Assembly (NCBI GenBank): GCA_965217585.1
Contig: OZ244561.1
Coordinates: 2,048,001-2,112,000 of the forward strand
Direction of reading: 5' to 3'
From: Candidatus Latescibacterota bacterium
GTDB taxonomy: Bacteria > Latescibacterota > UBA2968 > UBA8231
Length of the DNA stretch: 64,000 nt
Shown here: one piece after another, positions 1 to 10,696 of the stretch
Layout of the letters: each line of letters begins with the position of its first letter
Numbering within the stretch: the stretch's first letter is position 1
Translations under genes and position numbers: made by a program
The notes under the pieces: generated by a model
What the model was told of the DNA's origin: nothing
The model's database searches: none
Seen by the model: the letters and a program-made list of their open reading frames with translations, nothing else

Positions 1-14
1 TAAACGGAGAGAGA

Positions 15-2258
15 ATGGCAATTATTAGGTATTGGCTGGGGGCTCTATTGGTGGCCATGCCCCTAGCGGCTCAGACTTCGGAGTTTACCCTAAGCGGTTT
101 TGTGACCGACGGCGACAACGGCGAATCCCTGCCCCTGGCCTCCATTGTCCTGACGCAGGCACAGTTGGGCGCGGCGAGCAATAGCAGCGGCTACTACGCC
201 GTCAAAGAGGTACCAGCGGGGACGTACGAGGTGGTGATTTCGTATATAGGCTACAAAAGCTGGCGCGACACCCTAGCGTTTAGCGACCGAGACGTGCGCT
301 TGGATGTGGCCTTGCAAGTCGAGTCGGTGAGATTAGAGGAAGTCGTGATCCAAGCCGAGCGCAGCGAAGAGCTGGAGCAGGCCACCCAAAGCAGTTTTAT
401 CGCCCTGCAGGTCGAGCCGTTGCAGCAAATGCCGGCCATTGGCGAAGCCGACCTGCTCCGCAGCTTGCAACTGCTGCCGGGCATCCAGTCGGCTTCAGAT
501 ATTAGCAGCGGCCTATACGTGCGCGGCGGCGGCCCCGATCAGACAGCCATTCTCCTCGACCACATTCCCCTGTACAATCCCTCGCACCTCTTCGGCTTCT
601 TCTCGACCTTCAACGCCGACGCCATCAAGGACGTCCAGCTATACAAAGGGGCCTACCCGGCTGCGTACGGTCGCACGCTCGGGGCGGTGCTCGACGTGAG
701 CAACCGCGAGGGCAACCGACAACGCTTCAGCAGCCGGGGCGGCATCAGCCTAATCGCGAGCCGCTTGCTAGCCGAAGGGCCGGTGGGGCAAGGCTCGTGG
801 ATGCTAGCCGGCCGCCGCACCTACCTAGAACCCGTGCTCAGCGCCATCCGCTCCCGTGGGGTAGACATCCCCTTGAACTATTACTTCTACGACTTCAACG
901 GCAAAGTCAACCAGCGATGGGGCGACGACACCTTTACGGTGAGCACGTACTGGGGCCAGGACGATCTGCGGGTGGACATAGAAGATGAGAATGAGTCCTT
1001 CGTCGATCTGCGCTGGGGCAACCGCGCGCTGACCGCGCGCTGGACGCGGGTGTTCTCGCCGACCCTGTTTGGGCACTTCATGGCCGCCGGCTCGTCGTAC
1101 GAAAACACCCTCTTGTTTAGTTTCTTCGCCACGCCGTTCGGCGTTGCCAACAGCATCCGCGATTGGTCGCTCAAAGGCGACGTGGATTACTTTGCCAACC
1201 GCAACCACACCCTCACCCTCGGCTTCCTAGCCACCCTGTTTGAGTTCGACTATTCCGAGTCCTTCAACCAGCAGGACCAGTCCGACTTGTACCAGAGGTC
1301 GGTGCTAGCCTCGACCTACGTGCAGGACGAATGGCAGGCCGGGCCGACCACGCGGCTGCGACTTGGGGGACGGGGCACCTATTTCAGCGTCGGGGATCGC
1401 CTGCACTTCACGCCGCGGCTGTCCCTGAGCCACGCCCTCAGCGACAAAATCCGCATCAAGGCCGCCGCGGGGATGTACCGCCAGTACCTGCAATTGATCA
1501 CCACCGAAGCCTTCAGCGGCGGCGATTTCTGGGTGCCGCTCGACAGCAGCGTCGAGCCGGGCCGCTCGTACCAAGGAGTCGTGGGCACCGAGTGGAACCC
1601 GTCGCGGCGCTACCAACTCTCAGTGGAGGCCTACTACACCGATTTGGCCAATCTGGTGGTGCTGGACAACGCGGTGGCTGTCGATAGCGAGGACACGCGC
1701 TCAGACGACATATTCAAAAGCGGGGGCAGCGGCTGGGCCAGCGGGGTCGAGGTCTTTTTGCAGCGGCGCACTGGGGCACTCACCGGCTGGGTGGGCTATA
1801 CCTTGGGCTGGACGCGGCGCACCTTCCCCGAACTGAACGGCGGGCTCACCTTTCCCCCCAAGTACGACCGCCGCCACGACCTGTCTTTCGTGGTCTCGTA
1901 CCAAGCGGGGAAATGGCGCTTAGGCTCCAATCTCGTGTACGCCACCGGACAGGCCTTCACCCCGGCCTCGGCCCGCTATTCGCTGCGCGAGCCGACCACT
2001 GGATTGGTGAAAGATTACGTGCTACCAGCCCCTCGCAATAGCGCCCGCCTGCTGCCCTACCACCGGCTCGATGCAAGCGCCAGTCGCGAGTTTGGGCTGT
2101 GGGGCCTCGACGTCGAGTTCTACTTGCAAATTTTCAATCTCTATAGCCGGCGCAACGAGTGGTTCGTGCAGTTCGACACGAAGAAACCCGAGACCGAGCC
2201 GGAGGTGTTCAAACAGTTGCCCATCGTACCCACGCTGGGCTTCAATTTTTCGTTTTGA
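15..2258 (+). CDS. TonB-dependent outer-membrane receptor with N-terminal carboxypeptidase-regulatory-like domain
   Basis: Signal peptide; SGFVTD..GESLP N-domain; plug motifs GLYVRGG and HLFGFFS..NADAIKDVQLYKG; C-terminal aromatic GFNFSF; SD GGAG upstream. Confidence 0.9.
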   Translation: MAIIRYWLGALLVAMPLAAQTSEFTLSGFVTDGDNGESLPLASIVLTQAQLGAASNSSGYYAVKEVPAGTYEVVISYIGYKSWRDTLAFSDRDVRLDVALQVESVRLEEVVIQAERSEELEQATQSSFIALQVEPLQQMPAIGEADLLRSLQLLPGIQSASDISSGLYVRGGGPDQTAILLDHIPLYNPSHLFGFFSTFNADAIKDVQLYKGAYPAAYGRTLGAVLDVSNREGNRQRFSSRGGISLIASRLLAEGPVGQGSWMLAGRRTYLEPVLSAIRSRGVDIPLNYYFYDFNGKVNQRWGDDTFTVSTYWGQDDLRVDIEDENESFVDLRWGNRALTARWTRVFSPTLFGHFMAAGSSYENTLLFSFFATPFGVANSIRDWSLKGDVDYFANRNHTLTLGFLATLFEFDYSESFNQQDQSDLYQRSVLASTYVQDEWQAGPTTRLRLGGRGTYFSVGDRLHFTPRLSLSHALSDKIRIKAAAGMYRQYLQLITTEAFSGGDFWVPLDSSVEPGRSYQGVVGTEWNPSRRYQLSVEAYYTDLANLVVLDNAVAVDSEDTRSDDIFKSGGSGWASGVEVFLQRRTGALTGWVGYTLGWTRRTFPELNGGLTFPPKYDRRHDLSFVVSYQAGKWRLGSNLVYATGQAFTPASARYSLREPTTGLVKDYVLPAPRNSARLLPYHRLDASASREFGLWGLDVEFYLQIFNLYSRRNEWFVQFDTKKPETEPEVFKQLPIVPTLGFNFSF

Positions 2259-2268
2259 GGAGGAAGTC

Positions 2269-3270
2269 GTGCGCTATGTTCTCATTGTTCTGTACCTGAC
2301 GGCCTGTGCGGCCGAGCGCCAGCCGTGGGAATTCTTCGGCTCGGTGGAAGAAGAGAGCGAGTTGGTGGTGGACGGGGTGCTGCTAGTTGACCAGACCCTG
2401 CCCGATCTGTTCGTGCGGCGCACCCTGCCCTTGGCCGCGGCCGTGCGCCTAGATTCGAGCTATGTTTTTGATCCGGCCGACATTGATTCTACCGGGCGCT
2501 TGGTGCGCCCATCCCACAGCACCTACAGCCGGGAAGCGGCGGGGGTACCCGACGCCCGGGTGCACATCGTCGAGGGGGATCAAGTCTTTGAGTACGCACC
2601 CGACCCGGTTACACCCGGCCGCTATTTGCCACCACCAGACCCCCCCCAAGTGGAAGCCCTGACCGAGTACCGACTGGAAGTGGACGTAGAGGGAAAGAAA
2701 GTGCGGGCGAGCACTACCACGCCAGATCGAATGCGGGTGCGACAGGCGGTGCTGTTGGACGAAGATACCCAAGAGATCATGCGGACTCTCAAGTCATTTG
2801 CCGAGGTTGGGGACGAGGTGTACACGGCACCGGAGAATCAGATTACTCATCTGGAGGGTCTGATCGAACTCCGCTTGGAAAAGGCGGGGGAAGCGTACCA
2901 AGCGGCACTCTTCGCTTTGGATGAGGACGCGCAATTGCTCGACGAGGATTTCCCGGAGCTGTTCGACGAGGAAATGGATGCATTGCGGGCCAACCAATCG
3001 CCGCCCTTCGCCGCCAGCGATGGAATCGTGCGCTGGCCGTGGTTCGCGGTGGTTTTTACCGGGCGTTCGCTAATAAAGGTGTACGCGCTCGACCACAACT
3101 GGTTCGAGTACGCCCGCTCCAGCCCCGACCTGCAGGAGCAGGGCGGCTTTGCAGGAGGGCTGGCTGGCGAAAATTTCGAGCTGCCGTTCTTTCAGGTAGA
3201 GGGCGGCATCGGGCTGTTTGGCTCGGCATCGGTGGATTCGGTGGGGTTTGTCGTCCTGCCGCGACCGTGA
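2269..3270 (+). CDS. DUF4249-like lipoprotein, partner of the TonB receptor
   Basis: GTG start after GAGGAGG; lipobox LTAC; VVDGVL near the N-terminus; C-terminal VEGGIGLFGS motif; directly follows the TBDR. Confidence 0.7.
   Translation: MRYVLIVLYLTACAAERQPWEFFGSVEEESELVVDGVLLVDQTLPDLFVRRTLPLAAAVRLDSSYVFDPADIDSTGRLVRPSHSTYSREAAGVPDARVHIVEGDQVFEYAPDPVTPGRYLPPPDPPQVEALTEYRLEVDVEGKKVRASTTTPDRMRVRQAVLLDEDTQEIMRTLKSFAEVGDEVYTAPENQITHLEGLIELRLEKAGEAYQAALFALDEDAQLLDEDFPELFDEEMDALRANQSPPFAASDGIVRWPWFAVVFTGRSLIKVYALDHNWFEYARSSPDLQEQGGFAGGLAGENFELPFFQVEGGIGLFGSASVDSVGFVVLPRP
3192..3270 (+). repeat. 79-bp direct repeat copy A (3' end of the lipoprotein gene)
   Basis: 71/79 identical to 4826-4904 by manual alignment. 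Confidence 0.95.
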
Positions 3271-3325
3271 CGGGTCGAATCATCTAATCACTGACACGAT
3301 CACGCTCAGCGTCCGCCTCTCGCCT

Positions 3326-4216
3326 TCACATTACTGAATATGTTAGCAAAAGTCTATCCTCCACGACCTCCGACTCGAGTGTCTGGCCAGACATCTGAAA
3401 GCGTCGGAGCATAGAGCGGCCGCAGTTGACAAAGGCCTCCTGTTCAAAGAGACCTTCAGGTATAGGTAATGCACATTCTTGTGCTCCGGTCTTCTTCGAT
3501 CCATCAATAGAGAGAGCAACATAGACTGATCTGTGTTTGCATCTCTCGATAGCTCTTAGGAGACGCTCAAGGGTGAATGTCTGAGCACCGTAGAGGATAG
3601 CTTGGGTATGTCGGTATGGAGGATCGCAGTAGACTAGGTCTCCTGGTCTTGCTTGCTCCATAGCTTCTTCAAAGTCTAAATTAAGAAACTGGGTATTTCG
3701 AACTCTAGGTCTCCAGAGATCGACCCTAGCCGAAAAGGAATCGGGAGTGATGGGAGTGTGAACACCGCAGGGAGTGCTCATGTAGCCGTTTGTTGTGAAG
3801 CGGACGACACCACCGTAGCACGCGCGGCTGAGGAAAACAAGGTCCGCTGCATTCGGACTCCTGTTGTACGACGCTTTGATAGCCTCGTAGCCCTCAACCT
3901 TTTTATCTCCGGCACAGCGATCCCATCGCGTCTTGTACCACTGCTTGAGACGCTCAGGGTTACTCCTGAGCGTCTCAAAGATCCCGATCAAAGGGGCAAG
4001 AGCGTCGGAGGCTACTGCATCCTCTGGAGCCAGCGTCGCAAGGACGCTACCCGTACCGAGAAATGGCTCGAAATAGGTGCCGAACTGATTCGGAAAATAC
4101 CCGATTATCTCATGCGCGAACCGTTGCTTGTTTCCGACCCACTTCAGGAGTTGCGTCTTGAACGGGTACGAGCGGCTCACTTGACCGACTGCTTTGTGGA
4201 ATAGCCCCAACTGCAT
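3326..4216 (-). CDS. Dam/D12-class (alpha group) N6-adenine DNA methyltransferase
   Basis: LKWVGNK, FEPFLGTGSV (motif I) and VYCDPPY (motif IV); lower GC than flanks. Confidence 0.92.
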   Translation of the reverse strand: MQLGLFHKAVGQVSRSYPFKTQLLKWVGNKQRFAHEIIGYFPNQFGTYFEPFLGTGSVLATLAPEDAVASDALAPLIGIFETLRSNPERLKQWYKTRWDRCAGDKKVEGYEAIKASYNRSPNAADLVFLSRACYGGVVRFTTNGYMSTPCGVHTPITPDSFSARVDLWRPRVRNTQFLNLDFEEAMEQARPGDLVYCDPPYRHTQAILYGAQTFTLERLLRAIERCKHRSVYVALSIDGSKKTGAQECALPIPEGLFEQEAFVNCGRSMLRRFQMSGQTLESEVVEDRLLLTYSVM

Positions 4217-4244
4217 CTACTGCCGTCTTCCGAAAGGTAAAGAG

Positions 4245-4772
4245 ATGGACGATAAATATATCCTATTTTGGAAGGGTCCCATGAGGGCGCACAACTTCTT
4301 GACGTGTATCGTGAACATGCTCGTCGAAGATGGGATCAAAGGCCTGCCTTGCGACTACGATCCTAGACGACTCACGACACTGACACAAGGAGAAAAGCCC
4401 GCCCGCACTCTGTCCCGCCGCCTCGACGGCTGCTTCCCTGGGACAGTTAATCCGATCGCCGCATCGGAGATCAAGGAATACTACTACACAACCACGTTCG
4501 GCAGCCGAGTCGCAGACGGAGTCTATGAAACCCTGCTTGACGGATACGAGATTGCGGAGGCCCGTGAGAGTTTGGGGGTTGACGTTCAGCATCTTTTGAT
4601 AGTGGACGCCTACGGTACATGGTGGGAACAGGGGAGGTCATACCTTTGCAGGATCATCGACATGCTTCACATGGGCTATGTTGATGAAGTACTTTTCGGC
4701 TATGAGACAGTTGAGCGCCTGCCGGAGATCGTAGAAAGCTGGGTTGCCAAGTACAAATCACGTACCAAGTAG
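4245..4772 (+). CDS. Putative type II restriction endonuclease (PD-(D/E)XK-like), possibly N-terminally truncated
   Basis: RLDG..P...NP...EIKEY pattern; divergent from and adjacent to the MTase; same lower-GC composition. Confidence 0.6.
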   Translation: MDDKYILFWKGPMRAHNFLTCIVNMLVEDGIKGLPCDYDPRRLTTLTQGEKPARTLSRRLDGCFPGTVNPIAASEIKEYYYTTTFGSRVADGVYETLLDGYEIAEARESLGVDVQHLLIVDAYGTWWEQGRSYLCRIIDMLHMGYVDEVLFGYETVERLPEIVESWVAKYKSRTK

Positions 4773-4825
4773 CCAGCAGCTCTCCGATACTCAGGGTAAT
4801 CGACCCTGTTCATATCCGCGCAACA

Positions 4826-4904
4826 TCAGGTGGAAGGGGGCATCGGGCTGTTCGGCTCGGCGTCGGTGGATTCGGTGGGGTTTGTCGTCCTGCCTCGACC
4901 GTAG
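4826..4904 (+). repeat. 79-bp direct repeat copy B (orphan 3' end, QVEGGIGLFGSASVDSVGFVVLPRP*)
   Basis: Encodes the same 25 aa plus stop as copy A; all differences are synonymous. Confidence 0.95.
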
Positions 4905-4940
4905 AGCGCGGCGACTTCACTGCTAACAAGGACCAAGCGC

Positions 4941-5732
4941 ATGTGGACAGAAGCGCAACAACAGGCATTTGCAGAGCGGGGGTACTTCATTGCCAGCGAC
5001 GCCGTCAGCCCGGATATGGTGGAGGAACTGCGCCAAGCGGCCCGGCGCGTAAAGGCCCGCATACGCGCCGGCGAATTGGACTTGTACACCGACTATCGGG
5101 GCGAGGGCCAGCCGTATCACGTCTCCGGCCTAATCGCGCCGCAATACGGCGAACCGATCTTCGCCCATTACTTAGCCTCAGAGCCTTTGCTCGCCTACGT
5201 CCAAGCGCAGATCGGCCGCGAGTTGCGCTTCGGTTCCCTCTCCATGTTTACCAACCCACACAACCAAGTGTTCAATGTGCCTTGGCACCGCGACGACGGC
5301 CTCGTATTCGACAAGGACGAAGCCACCGAACTCGCTTATTTGCAGGAGCCGCGCACGGAGTGCCGCTGGGAGCTAGCCCTCGCAGACGACTCGGCGCTTG
5401 GCGTAATTCCGGGCAGTCAGAAGCGCTACCGCACCCAGCGGGAATGGGAGACCATGAGCAACAGCCGGGCCGAGGACTTGCCCGGGGCCGAGACAATCCA
5501 CTTGCAGGCCGGAGAAACCATCTTCTGGAACGGCAACATCATTCACCGGGCCTGCCACCAGCCCGATCGCGAGCGGCTGACCTTGGTCGCGGCCTATAAG
5601 GCATACCGCACGGACGAGCCTCCGCAGGATGTGGGGCGCTTCCGGTTTCTGCTCGACGACGCAGTCCGCGCCGGCTTGCCCGCAGGCTTGCACGTCTATT
5701 ACGACCGCTGGAAATCCCTCCAACGCGCCTGA
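4941..5732 (+). CDS. PhyH-family Fe(II)/2-oxoglutarate dioxygenase
   Basis: F.ERGY N-terminus, WHRD, IPGSQ, distal IIHRA, terminal R. Confidence 0.85.
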   Translation: MWTEAQQQAFAERGYFIASDAVSPDMVEELRQAARRVKARIRAGELDLYTDYRGEGQPYHVSGLIAPQYGEPIFAHYLASEPLLAYVQAQIGRELRFGSLSMFTNPHNQVFNVPWHRDDGLVFDKDEATELAYLQEPRTECRWELALADDSALGVIPGSQKRYRTQREWETMSNSRAEDLPGAETIHLQAGETIFWNGNIIHRACHQPDRERLTLVAAYKAYRTDEPPQDVGRFRFLLDDAVRAGLPAGLHVYYDRWKSLQRA

Positions 5733-5794
5733 GCAAGCAGCCTAATTCATCCCTCCCCCCTGCGATTTCCTTCCCGCTAGGTCCCGATCCTTTT

Positions 5795-8143
5795 TTAACG
5801 ATTTTCAGCCGCTTGTTTAAGTGCTCGGCTGCGCTCGTAGAATTCGGCTAAATCCATTTCCTTGAGGAACACGAGGCCCCGCGTGGCGCGGATCAGGGGG
5901 CTGGGGTGTTCGTGGAACCACCTGTGGCCGAGGCAAGTTTTGATCTTCTGGTACTGATCGACTTGTACCTGCTGCGCCAATTCGGAGAAGGGGCCGTCGT
6001 GCTCGTAACTGGGGAATGAAGCATCGCGCTGGGAGATAAAGGTATTCATAAAAGCGCTGTGCATGACCGAGAACATATTGAGCGAAACCGGCACGAAGAT
6101 ATTGGCCTCGCTGGGGTCAAAGCGGTACCACACATTGCGGTAGCCCCAGACCTTGATCTCGGAGCGTCCGCTTTGTCGCTCGTAGCGGCGGAGTGCCTCG
6201 GTAATCACCTGTAGCACCTTGTAGTGGGTGTCCGGCCCGCTGGCCTCTGGGTCTAGGGCTACGCCGACCACGTCAGGGGCTACTTGATCGAGGAGCGCGA
6301 GTACGGGCGGCACATCGTCTTCGAGCGTCGGCTCTTGGGTGAAGATGTCACCGGTATAAAAACCGAGGCTCAGGTGTTTGACGCTGGCGCAATCCCAGCC
6401 AAAATACCCCCACAGACACTCGGCCTCCCACGCGCGACATTTGCTTTTGAGCATCTGTACCTCCGGCGCGTCCTTCTGGCCCGGATAGCGGCTGGCGAAG
6501 TAGGCCTCCAGCTCCGTCAACCGGGCCTCAATGCCCGCGAGGTCCTCAACGTCGTACAGCTCGACGAGGTTCCGTAAAAAGCGCCGCGCCGCCCCTTCGT
6601 CGCACAACAGCGGGTCCGCGGCGGCGACCCCGTCGAGGTACTGCCAAACATCGCGGTTGCGACCGTTTTCGTAGCTGGGGTCAAAGTAGTCCTGCGCCCA
6701 AAGCGCCGAGCACTCGGCGCTGGGCAAAAAGCGCCGCAGCCGTTGCAAGTGGGCCTCGATAAAACGATTGGTCACCGCAGTGAAGCCGCCGGTAAAGCAG
6801 GCGAAATAATGCACGTTGGTGGCGTCGCGCACGTGGCGGACGATATAGGACAGGTAGCCCAGCATTAGGTCGTCGTGGTGCGGCTCCGTGTGCAGGAAGC
6901 GCGTCCCGGAAAGGGTCTGGGATCCCCGCTCGATTTTGCTTATTAGGCGGTCGCGCACCCGCTGCGTCAGTGCGGCGGTCCCCTCTGGGCGCTGGCGCAA
7001 CAGCACGGCACCCAAGGCGTCTCGGGCAAAGTCGCCCTCGGTTAGGTCGATGACCTTCTTGCCCAAGCCGCAGGCTAGGTCGATGACGATCTTTTCCACC
7101 ATCTCGTCGTCCATGGCTGCCCGCTGCTCCACGAGCACGAGCCGCCTAGCCCTGAGCGCCTTGGCCGCCCCCTGGGTGATGTAGAACCGCGCCATGGGCA
7201 GGCGGTGCAACGCCGTGGCCGGATAGCGCACGTCTGGCGCTTGCTCGATCGCGGCGGCGACAATGCCAGCCTTGGCCTCGCCCGCGGCGATGATCAGGGC
7301 ACAGCAGTCGGGATTGTCAATGATCGTGCCCAAGCCAATGGTGATGACCAGCCGCTTGCGCGCCACCTCAATGCCGCCCAAATCGCCAGCGGCCGCGGCC
7401 TGCGTTTCGTAGTTGATCCCCGTCAGCCTCGTCGTCGAAAAGTGGTCCGAGCCGCGCACGTTAAAACCGATGTGCCCGTCCGGGCCAATGCCCCCTAAGA
7501 AAAAGCCAATGCCTCCGAGGGCGCGGATTTGCTCCTCGTACTCTTGGCACCACTGGTCAATCCTTTGCAGCACGTCTTGCTGCACTCGCTCAAGCGAGGT
7601 GCGGGCGGCCCGGTAGCGCAGCGAGAGATCCACGGTGCCGTCTGGCCACACCTCGTTTAAGGTTTGGCCGGCTTGCAGGCCGATCTCAGCGCAGTTGATC
7701 CGCAGGGCCTTGGCCGGATCCAAGCCAAAACCATCGATGTAGAAGCGGTTTACATACGCGTAGAAACTGTTGTCCTGCCGAGGATCAATCGGGTAGAATT
7801 CGTCGATTTGCACAAAGTGCAGACTGCGCAGATCCGGCTTGCGTCCTGGGTCAATGCCGGCCTCTTCGAGTTCGGCGCGGATATCTGCCTCATCCCAATG
7901 CCGCAGCAGCCGCTCGACCCAGCGGATAAAGTGCTCGGGAGTCTTGCCCGTCGGCAGCGAGACCACGCCGCCGGGATGGTCCTGGACCCATTCGACAAAG
8001 CGCATCGCCGCCAGCTTGCCCAGCGCCGGGAAGTGCTCGACCACAATGGTCTTGATGTGCTCGGTCGGAGGATATTGTGCCGCAAAAGGCGAGCTTGCTA
8101 CAGCCCTGCGCTCGACCGCGGTCAGCTCTCCAGTATCGACCAT
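5795..8143 (-). CDS. Glucosamine-6-phosphate deaminase fused to a PIG-L/LmbE deacetylase-like domain
   Basis: LPTGKTP, QIDEFY and GGIGPDGHIGFN (NagB); EPHHDD and GPDTH (PIG-L-like). Confidence 0.85.
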   Translation of the reverse strand: MVDTGELTAVERRAVASSPFAAQYPPTEHIKTIVVEHFPALGKLAAMRFVEWVQDHPGGVVSLPTGKTPEHFIRWVERLLRHWDEADIRAELEEAGIDPGRKPDLRSLHFVQIDEFYPIDPRQDNSFYAYVNRFYIDGFGLDPAKALRINCAEIGLQAGQTLNEVWPDGTVDLSLRYRAARTSLERVQQDVLQRIDQWCQEYEEQIRALGGIGFFLGGIGPDGHIGFNVRGSDHFSTTRLTGINYETQAAAAGDLGGIEVARKRLVITIGLGTIIDNPDCCALIIAAGEAKAGIVAAAIEQAPDVRYPATALHRLPMARFYITQGAAKALRARRLVLVEQRAAMDDEMVEKIVIDLACGLGKKVIDLTEGDFARDALGAVLLRQRPEGTAALTQRVRDRLISKIERGSQTLSGTRFLHTEPHHDDLMLGYLSYIVRHVRDATNVHYFACFTGGFTAVTNRFIEAHLQRLRRFLPSAECSALWAQDYFDPSYENGRNRDVWQYLDGVAAADPLLCDEGAARRFLRNLVELYDVEDLAGIEARLTELEAYFASRYPGQKDAPEVQMLKSKCRAWEAECLWGYFGWDCASVKHLSLGFYTGDIFTQEPTLEDDVPPVLALLDQVAPDVVGVALDPEASGPDTHYKVLQVITEALRRYERQSGRSEIKVWGYRNVWYRFDPSEANIFVPVSLNMFSVMHSAFMNTFISQRDASFPSYEHDGPFSELAQQVQVDQYQKIKTCLGHRWFHEHPSPLIRATRGLVFLKEMDLAEFYERSRALKQAAENR

Positions 8144-8146
8144 CGC

Positions 8147-8902
8147 TTAGCTCCTCTCGCGGGTCGCAGTCAGGTGCGAGGCCGCTGCTTGATCGAGCAG
8201 GAATGTACAGCCGAGATGGTTCTGCAACAGACTGGCCGGGCAATCTAGCGTGCAAGGCCCCTCCACGGCCCGCGCCACGGCTGCGGCCTTTTGAACACCC
8301 GTGGCCAAAAGCGCAATGCTCCGCCCTTCGAGAATAGTCGCCAAACCCACCGTCAGGGCTAGCTGAGGCACGTGCGATGGATCGGCAAAGTGGCGGCTAT
8401 TGGCCGCGACGGTCTCTGGATTGGGCACTACCACCCGCGAGCGGCTCGCTGGATCGCTGCCGGGTTCGTTAAAGGCGATATGGCCGTTGCCGCCGATGCC
8501 TAAAAGCCACAGGTCAACCCCGCCCAAGGCGCGGATCTTGGCCTCAAAGGCCAAGCACTCCTGCTCGGGGTCTGACGCCGTGCCGTCGAAGAGGAACGTG
8601 TTATAGGGACGGACATCGACGTGATCGAATAAGTGCTGCTGCATAAAGAAGCGATAGCTCTGTTCGTGGTCGCCAGATAGGCCGAGGTACTCGTCTAGGT
8701 TGAAGGTACGCGCCTGGGCAAAGCTAAGCCCCTCTTCGCGGTGCATCCGCACCAATTCGCTATAGGTCGGCACGGGCGTCGAACCAGTCGCCAAGCCCAG
8801 CACGGCATTGGGACAGCGGCGCAGCCACGCGGCGCACAGACCAGCGGCAGCAGCAGCCACCGCCGTCTCGTCGGCGAGGACGCGTACCTCAATCCCACTC
8901 AT
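8147..8902 (-). CDS. nagB: Glucosamine-6-phosphate deaminase
   Basis: LGLATGSTP, TFNLDEY, LGIGGNGHIAFNEPGS, CPASLLQ.H. Confidence 0.93.
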   Translation of the reverse strand: MSGIEVRVLADETAVAAAAAGLCAAWLRRCPNAVLGLATGSTPVPTYSELVRMHREEGLSFAQARTFNLDEYLGLSGDHEQSYRFFMQQHLFDHVDVRPYNTFLFDGTASDPEQECLAFEAKIRALGGVDLWLLGIGGNGHIAFNEPGSDPASRSRVVVPNPETVAANSRHFADPSHVPQLALTVGLATILEGRSIALLATGVQKAAAVARAVEGPCTLDCPASLLQNHLGCTFLLDQAAASHLTATRERS

Positions 8903-8986
8903 GGCGTACCTAACCTGTGAAAAGTGAACAAGTGTACGGAACAAATTAGAAAGGGGAGGGATTGCGGTAAAGAATGCTAGGCGACC

Positions 8987-10696
8987 CTACCACAGCACCA
9001 CAAAAAGCAGGAAGCTAGCCACGGCCAAATAGACCCCGATCCACAACCCCGGCCGCAAATACCACTTAGGACCGTCCTCGCCGACCGCAAAGGGATACTC
9101 CGGCCGGATGGGTGCTTCCGTCAGGGTTTTCTGCAACCAGGTGCCTTCCAGCGCCACGAGCCGCCGGGCCATTACCGGGCGCAGTGCGGCCGGATCTTCG
9201 TGGCGAACGTAAATCAGCCCGCGCAATTCTTCGTCGCCCACTGGACCGCGCCGCCAGTCAATCAGCTTCGAGGCGACGTACATGCTCACCGCGGGCAGCA
9301 CCAAGTTCCACAGGTAGGTCCACCACGTATTCTGGTACCACACCGGCAGCGGCCACTCGTTGAAATCGGCCAAGATCGCCGACAGCCCGTAGCCAAGCCC
9401 CACCAGCAAGCCGACGATCCCGGTCTCGCGGTGTACTCGCGTAAAAACCCCCATCAAAATGACCGTCATCAGCGGCACGGCAATGGCCCCAGCCAGCCGC
9501 AGATAGAACATCAGCATCCCCTTCTCGCCCAAAAAGGGCACATAGATAAAACCCAGCGCCAGAATGATCGGCACCGAGATCCGCCCCACCTTGGTGTAGT
9601 GCGCGTCCGTGGCGTCCTTGACGATAAAGCGCGCGTACACGTCGCGCACGAAGAGCGAGGAAATGCCAATGCCGATGGAGTCAAAGGTCGAGTACCCAGC
9701 CGCCACCAGCCCGGCGACCACCAGCCCGACCAATCCGGCGGGTAGGTACGCCTCAATCATCAGCGGATAGGCCTGATCGACCATTTCTAGGCCGGGAAAC
9801 TGCGCCCGCGCCATCGGTCCCAAACTGACATTGAAGAACAGGCAGATCGCCGTGGCGATGCTAGCTACCAGCGCGGCCATTTTGAAATCCCACTCCGAGC
9901 GTGCGCCGAGGAAGCGGATGGCCTCGTACTGATTGATGACCGCGTACGTAGTCAACACCACCAAAAAACCGAATATCACGATGAAGGGGGGCACACCGGG
10001 CGGCGAATAGCCTCCCACGCGCAGCAGTGTATCCGCCAGCCCTTCTTCCACCGTCTCCAGCCGCGCCGCCACCCCATCCCAGCCACCCAGTCCCGAATAG
10101 ACGAATCCCCAGAGCACAAAAGAGGCCACGATCATCGTCGCGCTTTGTAGCGCGTCGGTCAGCACCCCGGCCCGCAAGCCGCCGCGCACGATGTAGAGCA
10201 CCGAGCTGAGTGCCACGCCCACCACCACCAACCAGCAAGTCGTCTCCTCAATTCCGGCGATGACATTGAGCACCAAGAACATGGAAAAGAAAATGTTGCC
10301 CAGCACGTTGGTCCGCGATTGGACGTTGATCAAGACCGCTAGCAGGCGGGCCGCCGGCCCGAAGCGGAACTCCAGCCACTCGGCGTTGGTAAAAACCCCA
10401 GAGCGGTACATCGGCACGATGACGAAGAAGCTGAGCACGGTCCAGCCCACGGCAATGCCCAACCACCACTGCGCCAACTGCGACAGCCCGAGGTTGTACG
10501 ATCCGCCGACAATGCCGACGTAATCGCCGCTATCGACAGCCGTCCCAAACGCCGACAGCCCAATCACCCACCAAGGCATGGACTTGGCCGCAAGGTACCA
10601 GTCGAAACTCTCACCCTTGTTGCGGAAGGCGATCAGGCTGTAGACGACGATGCCGCCGTTGAGGACCAAGACGACGGCCCAGTCTAATGTGGTCAT
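8987..10696 (-). CDS. Sodium:solute symporter (SSS family)
   Basis: Many TM segments; MPWW.IGLS, EWLEFRFG, GGLRA...TDALQ, FVRDVY motifs. Confidence 0.9.
   Translation of the reverse strand: MTTLDWAVVLVLNGGIVVYSLIAFRNKGESFDWYLAAKSMPWWVIGLSAFGTAVDSGDYVGIVGGSYNLGLSQLAQWWLGIAVGWTVLSFFVIVPMYRSGVFTNAEWLEFRFGPAARLLAVLINVQSRTNVLGNIFFSMFLVLNVIAGIEETTCWLVVVGVALSSVLYIVRGGLRAGVLTDALQSATMIVASFVLWGFVYSGLGGWDGVAARLETVEEGLADTLLRVGGYSPPGVPPFIVIFGFLVVLTTYAVINQYEAIRFLGARSEWDFKMAALVASIATAICLFFNVSLGPMARAQFPGLEMVDQAYPLMIEAYLPAGLVGLVVAGLVAAGYSTFDSIGIGISSLFVRDVYARFIVKDATDAHYTKVGRISVPIILALGFIYVPFLGEKGMLMFYLRLAGAIAVPLMTVILMGVFTRVHRETGIVGLLVGLGYGLSAILADFNEWPLPVWYQNTWWTYLWNLVLPAVSMYVASKLIDWRRGPVGDEELRGLIYVRHEDPAALRPVMARRLVALEGTWLQKTLTEAPIRPEYPFAVGEDGPKWYLRPGLWIGVYLAVASFLLFVVLW

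Follow-up and report, generated by a model that had tools for sequence, protein, structure and literature searches.

How does a restriction-modification (R-M) cassette that encodes no recombinase come to lie between two copies of the end of a neighbouring gene? The question is raised by a locus near the start of a 64,000-nucleotide (nt) stretch of Candidatus Latescibacterota bacterium DNA (contig OZ244561.1, positions 2,048,001 to 2,112,000 of the forward strand). This whole stretch is called the window, and positions are given in its coordinates unless stated otherwise. The source genome, G000, is a single 7.3-Mb contig, and it was compared with the genomes of relatives (handles of the form G0xx) and with contigs from public runs containing the sequence, which were sponge, coral, and marine metagenomes. 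An earlier note, made from the window alone, had described a methyltransferase and a nuclease that bring their own synonymous replacement for the 3' end of a lipoprotein gene. Our analysis indicates that the islet was probably put in place, and is handed on among related genomes, by host homologous recombination, in which the tail allele of a donor came in with the islet and the tail of the resident gene was pushed out of its position.

The lipoprotein gene (2257-3270, + strand) is intact and belongs to the DUF4249 family (Pfam E 3.4e-7, 30.5 bits with a cut-off of 28.5). Its sequence includes a lipobox-like LTAC, and the gene lies after a TonB-dependent receptor gene. Its last 79 nt, copy A (3192-3270, + strand), occur again as a direct repeat, copy B (4826-4904, + strand), and 8 nt differ between the two. 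The repeat search recovered 77 nt of this pair (3192-3268 and 4826-4902) with 92% identity and a spacing of 1634. In the frame of the gene ending at 3270, both copies gave the identical peptide QVEGGIGLFGSASVDSVGFVVLPRP* of 25 residues and a stop, so the repeat was confirmed as it had been described. Six of the eight differences are silent third-position changes (GTA/GTG, GAG/GAA, GGC/GGG, TTT/TTC, GCA/GCG, and CCG/CCT for A/B, respectively), and the remaining two fall in the stop codon, which is TGA in copy A and TAG in copy B. Homology between the copies has a sharp onset at TCAGGT and does not extend beyond the stop codon; a 32-nt block (3229-3260) is identical in both.

Synonymous changes make up 29.8% of the possible single-base changes in the 75 coding nt, and six random changes were all silent in only 4e-4 to 1e-3 of Monte Carlo trials (kappa 1 to 4). 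The claim that both copies had been under coding selection was upheld by this result. Copy B is untranslated, and its reading frame has only 9 open codons upstream. Judged by their differences, copies A and B are alleles that have diverged under coding selection.

The 1.55 kb between the repeats has a guanine-plus-cytosine (GC) content of 52.5%, compared with 61.6% in 6 kb of flanks, which agrees with the lower-GC insert reported before. The description of its content as a methyltransferase plus a nuclease stood in part. The methyltransferase gene (3326-4216, - strand) is full length, but the type II restriction endonuclease gene (4245-4772, + strand) is a remnant of only the C-terminal 166 of 284 residues, and the R-M system is not intact. 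All five other genomes with the cassette have about 680 bp extra at window 4271, and the scar of this deletion lies at 4271-4272. No recombinase is encoded in the insert, where Pfam and PADLOC found only the methylase and the nuclease remnant, in line with the earlier observation. The genome holds five tyrosine recombinase genes (PF00589) and no serine recombinase gene (PF00239), none of them within 800 kb of the insert. No tRNA or tmRNA gene was found in window 1-10000.

The relatives supplied the site without the cassette. By their flanking genes, G001 and G002 (about 94% identity) and G019 (about 91%) are the nearest relatives, and the other cassette carriers are about 79% identical in the right-flank gene. 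The empty site, which the earlier note had proposed to look for, is clean in G001: the lipoprotein gene leads directly into the PhyH gene, and both query segments overlap on a single 79-nt copy. Both flanks are syntenic with G001 at genome-average identity. The single copy of G001 differs from copy B at 3 of 79 nt, all silent, and from copy A at 6 bases. Copy B is contiguous with sequence 94% identical to G001 from 4826 to beyond 9377 (>4.5 kb), and 5 of the 36 bases of the spacer before PhyH differ from G001.

The two copies run into different surroundings. After copy A come TGA and about 24 nt as found behind the lipoprotein gene in G020, G042, and G019, unlike G001, whereas copy B is followed by TAG, the spacer, and the PhyH gene as in G001. 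Alignment with the relatives thus presents copy A as a donor-type allele, and the near-match of copy B to the functional copy of G001 presents it as a resident-type allele. Upstream, the body of the lipoprotein gene is nearest to G001 up to about 3170, and it has a 3-nt GCA indel near 3151 in common with G001 only. The left crossover was narrowed to about 3153-3268 by sliding identity and informative sites. Because the gene body is G001-like as far as the GCA indel, the left donor tract is at most about 115 nt.

The synonymous divergence (dS) between G000 and G001 is 0.16-0.27, and it is 0.22 in the 3' half of the lipoprotein gene. If copy B had been non-coding since the split of G000 and G001, about 4-7 nonsynonymous-type changes were calculated to be present. 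None was seen, so until recently the window's copy B was still a functioning gene tail. The number of nonsynonymous codons in copy B is 0 in G000 and 5 in G022.

The cassette was found in 6 of 31 genomes of the genus, always behind the same lipoprotein gene. In four of the six carriers (G020, G024, G041, and G042), it lies directly behind that gene with neither copy B nor PhyH, and its right flank runs past the point that is joined to TCAGGT in the window. The idea that the cassette brings its own replacement tail as an intrinsic part was not sustained by these four. G022 has the same joint between cassette and copy B as G000, followed by copy B and PhyH. A contig of the public run X1 covers 4271-4859, reaching 34 nt into copy B, in the undeleted form. 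Because G022 and the X1 contig have the same joint, it would represent a single old illegitimate event and not a local crossover. TCAGGT, previously taken as the crossover point, is an inherited junction of cassette and gene tail. Alignment of the right flank of the cassette (4773-4825) showed homology in all six carriers up to about 4822, and the joint was mapped between about 4822 and 4826.

The left edge was likewise examined by a seven-genome alignment. The junction region 3271-3325 holds a type-1 downstream flank and a short scar resembling the middle of vapC. In G022 and G024, the lipoprotein gene and the methylase gene are separated by vapB (Pfam MazE_antitoxin) and a truncated vapC-like start; in G022 this stretch is L015 3210-3753, equivalent to window 3271-3325. 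The vapC-like remnant of G019 has CACGATCACGCTCAGCG in common with the window, and only short vapC-like scars are left in both. The vapC label of these fragments comes from reading the sequence, with no family match. As scars of a vapBC module lie there, the left edge is not a defined element end.

The divergence between G000 and the other carriers changes along the locus. The dS of the cassette to the five other carriers is 0.24-0.34, that of the left flank is 0.30-0.51, and that of the right-flank gene is 0.82-0.96 with respect to G022, G020, G041, and G042, the carriers whose fetched locus reached this gene. On these values the divergence of the locus is mosaic.

The locus is unusually readable, as it offers an empty site, donor-type and resident-type tails, a joint common to a distant species, and both decayed and fresh displaced copies. 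Taken together, these four kinds of evidence favour an illegitimate joint that was made once and on which ordinary homologous recombination then acted. The route and its direction, as the sequences suggest them, would be as follows. The cassette would first have lain behind the lipoprotein gene in some lineages. The right end of the cassette would then have become attached, in one old illegitimate joint, to position -79 of a lipoprotein gene preceding PhyH, which would leave the cassette flanked on both sides by lipoprotein-tail homology, as in the G022-type composite. A donor with this composite would have recombined with an islet-free genome of the G001 type, either by a double crossover or by a single crossover of a circle, with the identical 32-nt block as a natural site of strand exchange. 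These two routes give the same product and are indistinguishable by sequence. In this product the gene would end in the donor tail (copy A, TGA, and donor flank), and the resident tail (copy B, TAG, native flank, and PhyH) would lie behind the cargo. The 680-bp deletion has since reduced the system of G000 to a solitary methylase. The same picture would result if DNA of an islet-free strain had recently overwritten the right flank of a carrier, including copy B.

Islets of similar build were sought throughout the source genome with a filter of our own design, which kept direct repeats 45-260 nt in length if they included or adjoined the stop codon of a long open reading frame (ORF) and enclosed an insert with a GC fraction at least 0.045 lower. 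It returned 22 low-GC islets including the R-M locus, with repeats of 55-222 nt from the 3' end of the neighbouring gene. Further islets lie, for example, at 145318-150223, 286942-289096, 4008237-4019942, and 6586881-6588678 of G000 (C1). Cargo with a Pfam match was mostly related to defence or toxin-antitoxin functions, and many islet ORFs had no match. The matches included HamA with a helicase, GmrSD, DUF433/DUF5615, PIN/HicB, a MazF-like toxin, HepT, type III R-M with TIR and AAA proteins, dynamin-like GTPases, Fic, and ThiF, and one islet holds a 9-kb block of methyltransferase, kinase, and acetyltransferase genes. A transposase was present in one of the 22 islets and an integrase in none of them.

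In 16 of the 22 islets, no more than 10 nt separate the end of the repeat from the stop codon. Differences between the copies fell on the first, second, and third codon positions 28, 15, and 76 times, respectively (p 1e-11). When the R-M locus and five fragments in long ORFs were left out, the corresponding counts for 16 islets were 19, 12, and 52 (p 4.5e-8). The empty site was sought for four islets and was clean for two. The site of the islet at 6,586,881 is empty in G001, G002, G007, and G022, and the islet at 145,318 has its empty counterpart in G002, G019, and G022. Native-type variants and the native flank accompany the displaced fragment of each. Both here and in these two further islets, the foreign allele is the tail beside the cargo, and the resident allele, which continues into its native flank, is the displaced fragment. 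The remaining two tests gave no clean result: the cargo of the GmrSD islet is present in G001 as well and the right flank used was too short, and the flank to the left of the MazF islet is variable in its own right.

Several other explanations were weighed. Insertion of R-M systems with a long duplication of the target was described by Furuta, Abe and Kobayashi (2010, PMC2853133), who cite their own H. pylori work of 2000; R-M genes with such flanks have been on record since that year. In the passages of that article that deal with the mechanism, the authors leave it open and suggest that double-strand breakage by R-M is involved, and according to its Figure 3 legend some of the repeats overlap the 3' end of a gene. 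By its sequence features the R-M locus belongs to this known class. It has homologues of the restriction (R) and modification (M) genes, an insert of 1634 bp (<20 kb in the class), a 79-nt repeat (>30 bp) that is present as one copy with contiguous flanks in G001, and no other mobile-element gene according to Pfam and PADLOC on both ORFs. This likeness to the class, as the article defines it, speaks for a true target duplication at insertion, for example by filling in a staggered double-strand break, with copies that were identical at first and a copy B that drifted afterwards. We consider this very improbable, since non-coding drift should not yield six silent changes out of six, the stop codons differ, the flanks are non-homologous and each is native behind the lipoprotein gene in other genomes, and the third-position bias is also seen in 16 to 21 other islets. 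Compared with the published class, the copies here can be read as two alleles with silent differences, distinct stops, and distinct native flanks, the joint on the cargo side is common to a distant congener while the displaced copy is fresh, and the R gene is truncated. The shared joint, the fresh copy, and the two alleles point to homologous recombination and not to duplication at insertion. The insert might instead be a non-autonomous site-specific islet whose 79-nt copy is an attachment (att) arm with a substitute tail, inserted and excised by an integrase encoded elsewhere. Integrases are known to insert elements with a substitute tail into the 3' ends of genes, as for e14 and phage 21 in icd and for cis-mobilizable elements (CIMEs) at fda. 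The geometry is the same here: the insert is enclosed by a direct repeat of a gene tail, with the substitute tail, mostly silently different, beside the cargo and the native tail displaced. The identical 32-nt block could be the core, and the fixed junction of cassette and copy B in common with G022 is what an attP arm would be expected to give. Unlike in those elements, an integrase is present neither in nor near the insert, and none was seen in the cargo read at the locus in G005, G013, G022, and G001 (a few kb per genome). The few recombinases of the genome, two of whose five tyrosine-type matches we take to be the housekeeping Xer pair, would have to serve 22 islets at 22 gene tails, none of which lies within 20 kb of an integrase. 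The second copy is missing in four of the six carriers, and there the right flank extends past the joint, so the joint looks like a breakpoint and not like the end of an element. This explanation is therefore unlikely.

An old composite of cassette, copy B, and PhyH might also have been inherited vertically from the ancestor of G000, G001, and G019, then lost from G001 by recombination between the copies and from G019 by deletion, with copy B kept by selection. The dS of the G000 cassette of at least 0.24 to every sampled cassette agrees with this, and so does G019, which keeps the TGA-type flank and part of the spacer before PhyH. Another X1 contig, which joins 3294 to 4916 (with a side of 37 nt), would fit as well, although it was read only as a related strain without the cassette. 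Against such an inheritance, no reading frame or known RNA explains the constraint on copy B, with its 9 open codons upstream, copy B of G022 decays freely, and the 4-7 nonsynonymous-type changes expected in copy B are absent. We regard the vertical composite as quite unlikely. An assembly artefact that joined two strains at the repeat is scarcely credible. The source is of the metagenome type, and the runs do hold several related strains, whose contigs break inside the repeat. Nevertheless, G000 is one contig, zero-mismatch contigs of runs X19 and X20 extend from 3231 into the methylase gene, and a further zero-mismatch contig of X20 runs from 4065 to 4837, over the deletion scar and 12 nt into copy B. 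The same junction of cassette and copy B is also present in the single-contig genome G022 and in the X1 contig that covers 4271-4859.

Some observations weigh against homologous recombination with a carrier as donor. The earlier proposal that an allele came in from a related lineage agrees with the flanks, as copy A runs into the TGA and flank of other carriers and copy B continues as in G001, but the coding part of copy A is unassignable to a donor, with 4 silent differences to G001 and a similar number to G042. Copy A is assigned to a donor by its stop codon and about 24 nt of flank. G019, which is of the same clade as G000, also has a TGA-type end; because it lacks the cassette, the TGA end could be the native one, in which case the PhyH side would have come in. 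The cassette of G000 forms an outgroup to the other five (92.4-93.5% identity, compared with 93-99% among them), with no close donor sampled, and the cassette evidence alone may be compatible with long vertical residence. No clear microhomology is visible at the old joint in the alignment of carriers, and no contig of the public runs, which were kept as contigs, spans the whole structure. Finally, the set of 22 islets comes from a filter that we designed, and empty sites were tested in four of them and clean in two.

The arrangement was also compared with the displacement of Rhs C-terminal ends and of type VI secretion system (T6SS) effector-immunity genes, for which the relevant sections of Kirchberger 2017 (PMC5361080) propose homology-facilitated illegitimate recombination. 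As described there, homology in the upstream gene anchors the incoming DNA, the new end takes over, and the old end is orphaned downstream with no recombinase, which resembles the present locus. What is pushed aside there, however, is another toxin tip together with its immunity gene. The tail at the present locus is synonymous and leaves the protein as it was, and an unrelated defence cassette forms the cargo.

The cargo itself was analysed in the window and in the carriers with an undeleted form. The methyltransferase is a predicted Dam-family (D12 class) N6-adenine DNA methyltransferase by PF02086 (E 1e-27), TIGR00571 (126.5 bits, cut-off 114.85), and PADLOC MTase_II (E 9e-70). Its translation shows FxGxG and DPPY, and its ratio of nonsynonymous to synonymous divergence (dN/dS) is 0.07-0.12 with respect to five relatives. 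The undeleted cassette of G022 comprises the minus-strand methylase, an 87-residue helix-turn-helix (HTH) controller (HTH_3 E 6e-15, with a PADLOC Control_protein match), and a 284-residue protein with DUF7690 and DUF7687, which matches the PADLOC type II restriction enzyme across its full length (E 6e-63). The nuclease gene is intact in G020, G022, G024, G041, and G042. From sequence and structural model, the intact islet consists of a divergent Dam-family methylase, a controller, and a predicted PD-(D/E)XK endonuclease, and is a type II R-M system. Set beside controller-containing type II R-M systems (PADLOC REase_II PDLC03423, MTase_II PDLC03290, and Control_protein), the intact cassette of the relatives has the usual divergent order of M, controller (C), and R, whereas the window copy lacks C and residues 1-118 of R. 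At homologue loci from many phyla, a Dam-like methylase lies within 1.5 kb of R in 79 of 80 cases, and a C/HTH gene lies just upstream in 77 of 80.

The fold of the nuclease was assigned from VIA-align, PADLOC, and the conserved motif. The AlphaFold model of the full-length protein has a mean confidence (pLDDT) of 94.7. VIA-align ranked BstEII (PDB 9ibq) as best, with Z 12.0 and a root-mean-square deviation (rmsd) of 3.3 over 155 residues, and PspGI, SgrAI, and BsoBI followed with Z of 8.7-8.9. Foldseek found nothing in the PDB at E 0.001 or better. The full-length sequence found nothing among PDB chains at E up to 1, and it has no NCBIfam match. D170, E184, and K186 are invariant among 37 nuclease homologues.

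The 680-bp deletion took the controller gene, the intergenic region between M and C, and nuclease codons 1-118. The controller gene is therefore not present in the window cassette, as it lies in the deleted segment. The ORF at 4245-4772 encodes nuclease residues 119-284 in frame behind a 9-codon leader. It matches DUF7687 (E 7e-71) over profile positions 31-187 of 187, and the best-scoring stretch of PADLOC REase_II on it covers profile positions 168-283 only. The 7.3-Mb genome has no other copy of the nuclease; the sole match there covers residues 119-284 of 284. W183, conserved in 37 of 37 homologues and adjoining the catalytic E of the E-x-K motif, is S in the remnant; this may be an inactivating change, earlier or later than the deletion. 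The dN/dS of the remnant with respect to the relatives is 0.08-0.12, similar to that of the methylase. Because it is still at this level, the truncation is recent relative to the divergence. By its gene content, the cassette of the window would now function as a solitary methylase with a pseudogene.

The variable region has conserved genes on both sides. On the left, the TonB-dependent receptor gene (15-2258, + strand) has Pfam matches to CarbopepD_reg_2, CarboxypepD_reg, and Plug and is 93.6% identical to G001. A tandem paralogue of this receptor lies just upstream, at about -2443 to -284 from the window start, in G000, G001, G002, and G019, and it is about 74% identical to window 87-2277. 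On the right, the native intergenic spacer and the PhyH-family dioxygenase gene occupy 4905-5732 on the + strand (gene 4941-5732; Pfam PhyH E 1.7e-12), with the same order in G001. A conserved gene of 782 residues (5795-8143, - strand; 94% identity to G001 and about 79% to the G022 group) forms the right anchor. Of 17 first-batch relatives, it was found in all 15 whose fetched locus reached that far (that is, not in G005 and G013).

Other cargo was indeed found at the locus, as the earlier note had suggested looking for. The interval up to the 782-residue gene holds ferritin, PhyH, a class-V aminotransferase, the cassette, or 3'-end remnants of genes, depending on the genome. With respect to G041, G022 has a 2.35-kb insertion to the right of the cassette (L015 5832-8185), which consists of copy B, PhyH, and the class-V aminotransferase (cysteine-desulfurase-like). 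At L015 8726-9097, G022 also has a small chimeric ORF, in which a TonB-receptor C-terminus remnant (…QLPITPTLGF…) is fused to a PhyH C-terminus remnant. Many genomes without PhyH retain a remnant that matches window 5636-5790, and gene-tail fragments accumulate at this spot. G001 and G002 have an island of 2.5-3.2 kb between the TonB-receptor and lipoprotein genes, with an AAA ATPase matched by PADLOC HEC-03B (E 3e-214; in G001, L018 about 1-2620 with L033). The repeats of this island are the receptor gene tail, of about 46 nt in G001 and about 55 nt in G002, and their boundaries differ. Copy B as the remnant of a full tandem paralogue, the outcome that was to have counted against the earlier note, was rejected: the loci read in 19 relatives have one lipoprotein gene, and the same 79-nt fragment occurs only in G022.

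The defence and toxin-antitoxin islets of sponge-associated Latescibacterota may, as a tentative extension that we hold to be possible but somewhat less than even, share a recombinase-free way of moving. Each would carry a portable host-gene tail, in which RecA-mediated recombination would let it enter islet-free genomes, perhaps in the form of an excised circle that goes in by one crossover. The gene would retain a synonymous tail, and its former tail would end up behind the cargo. If true, this would explain the mechanism of insertion with long target duplication, which has been open since 2000, and would extend it from R-M to many defence systems. With about twenty further cases of diverse defence cargo in the same genome, the question could be tested by population metagenomics and would require no culture. 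The locus also shows how fast an R-M system decays to a solitary methylase.

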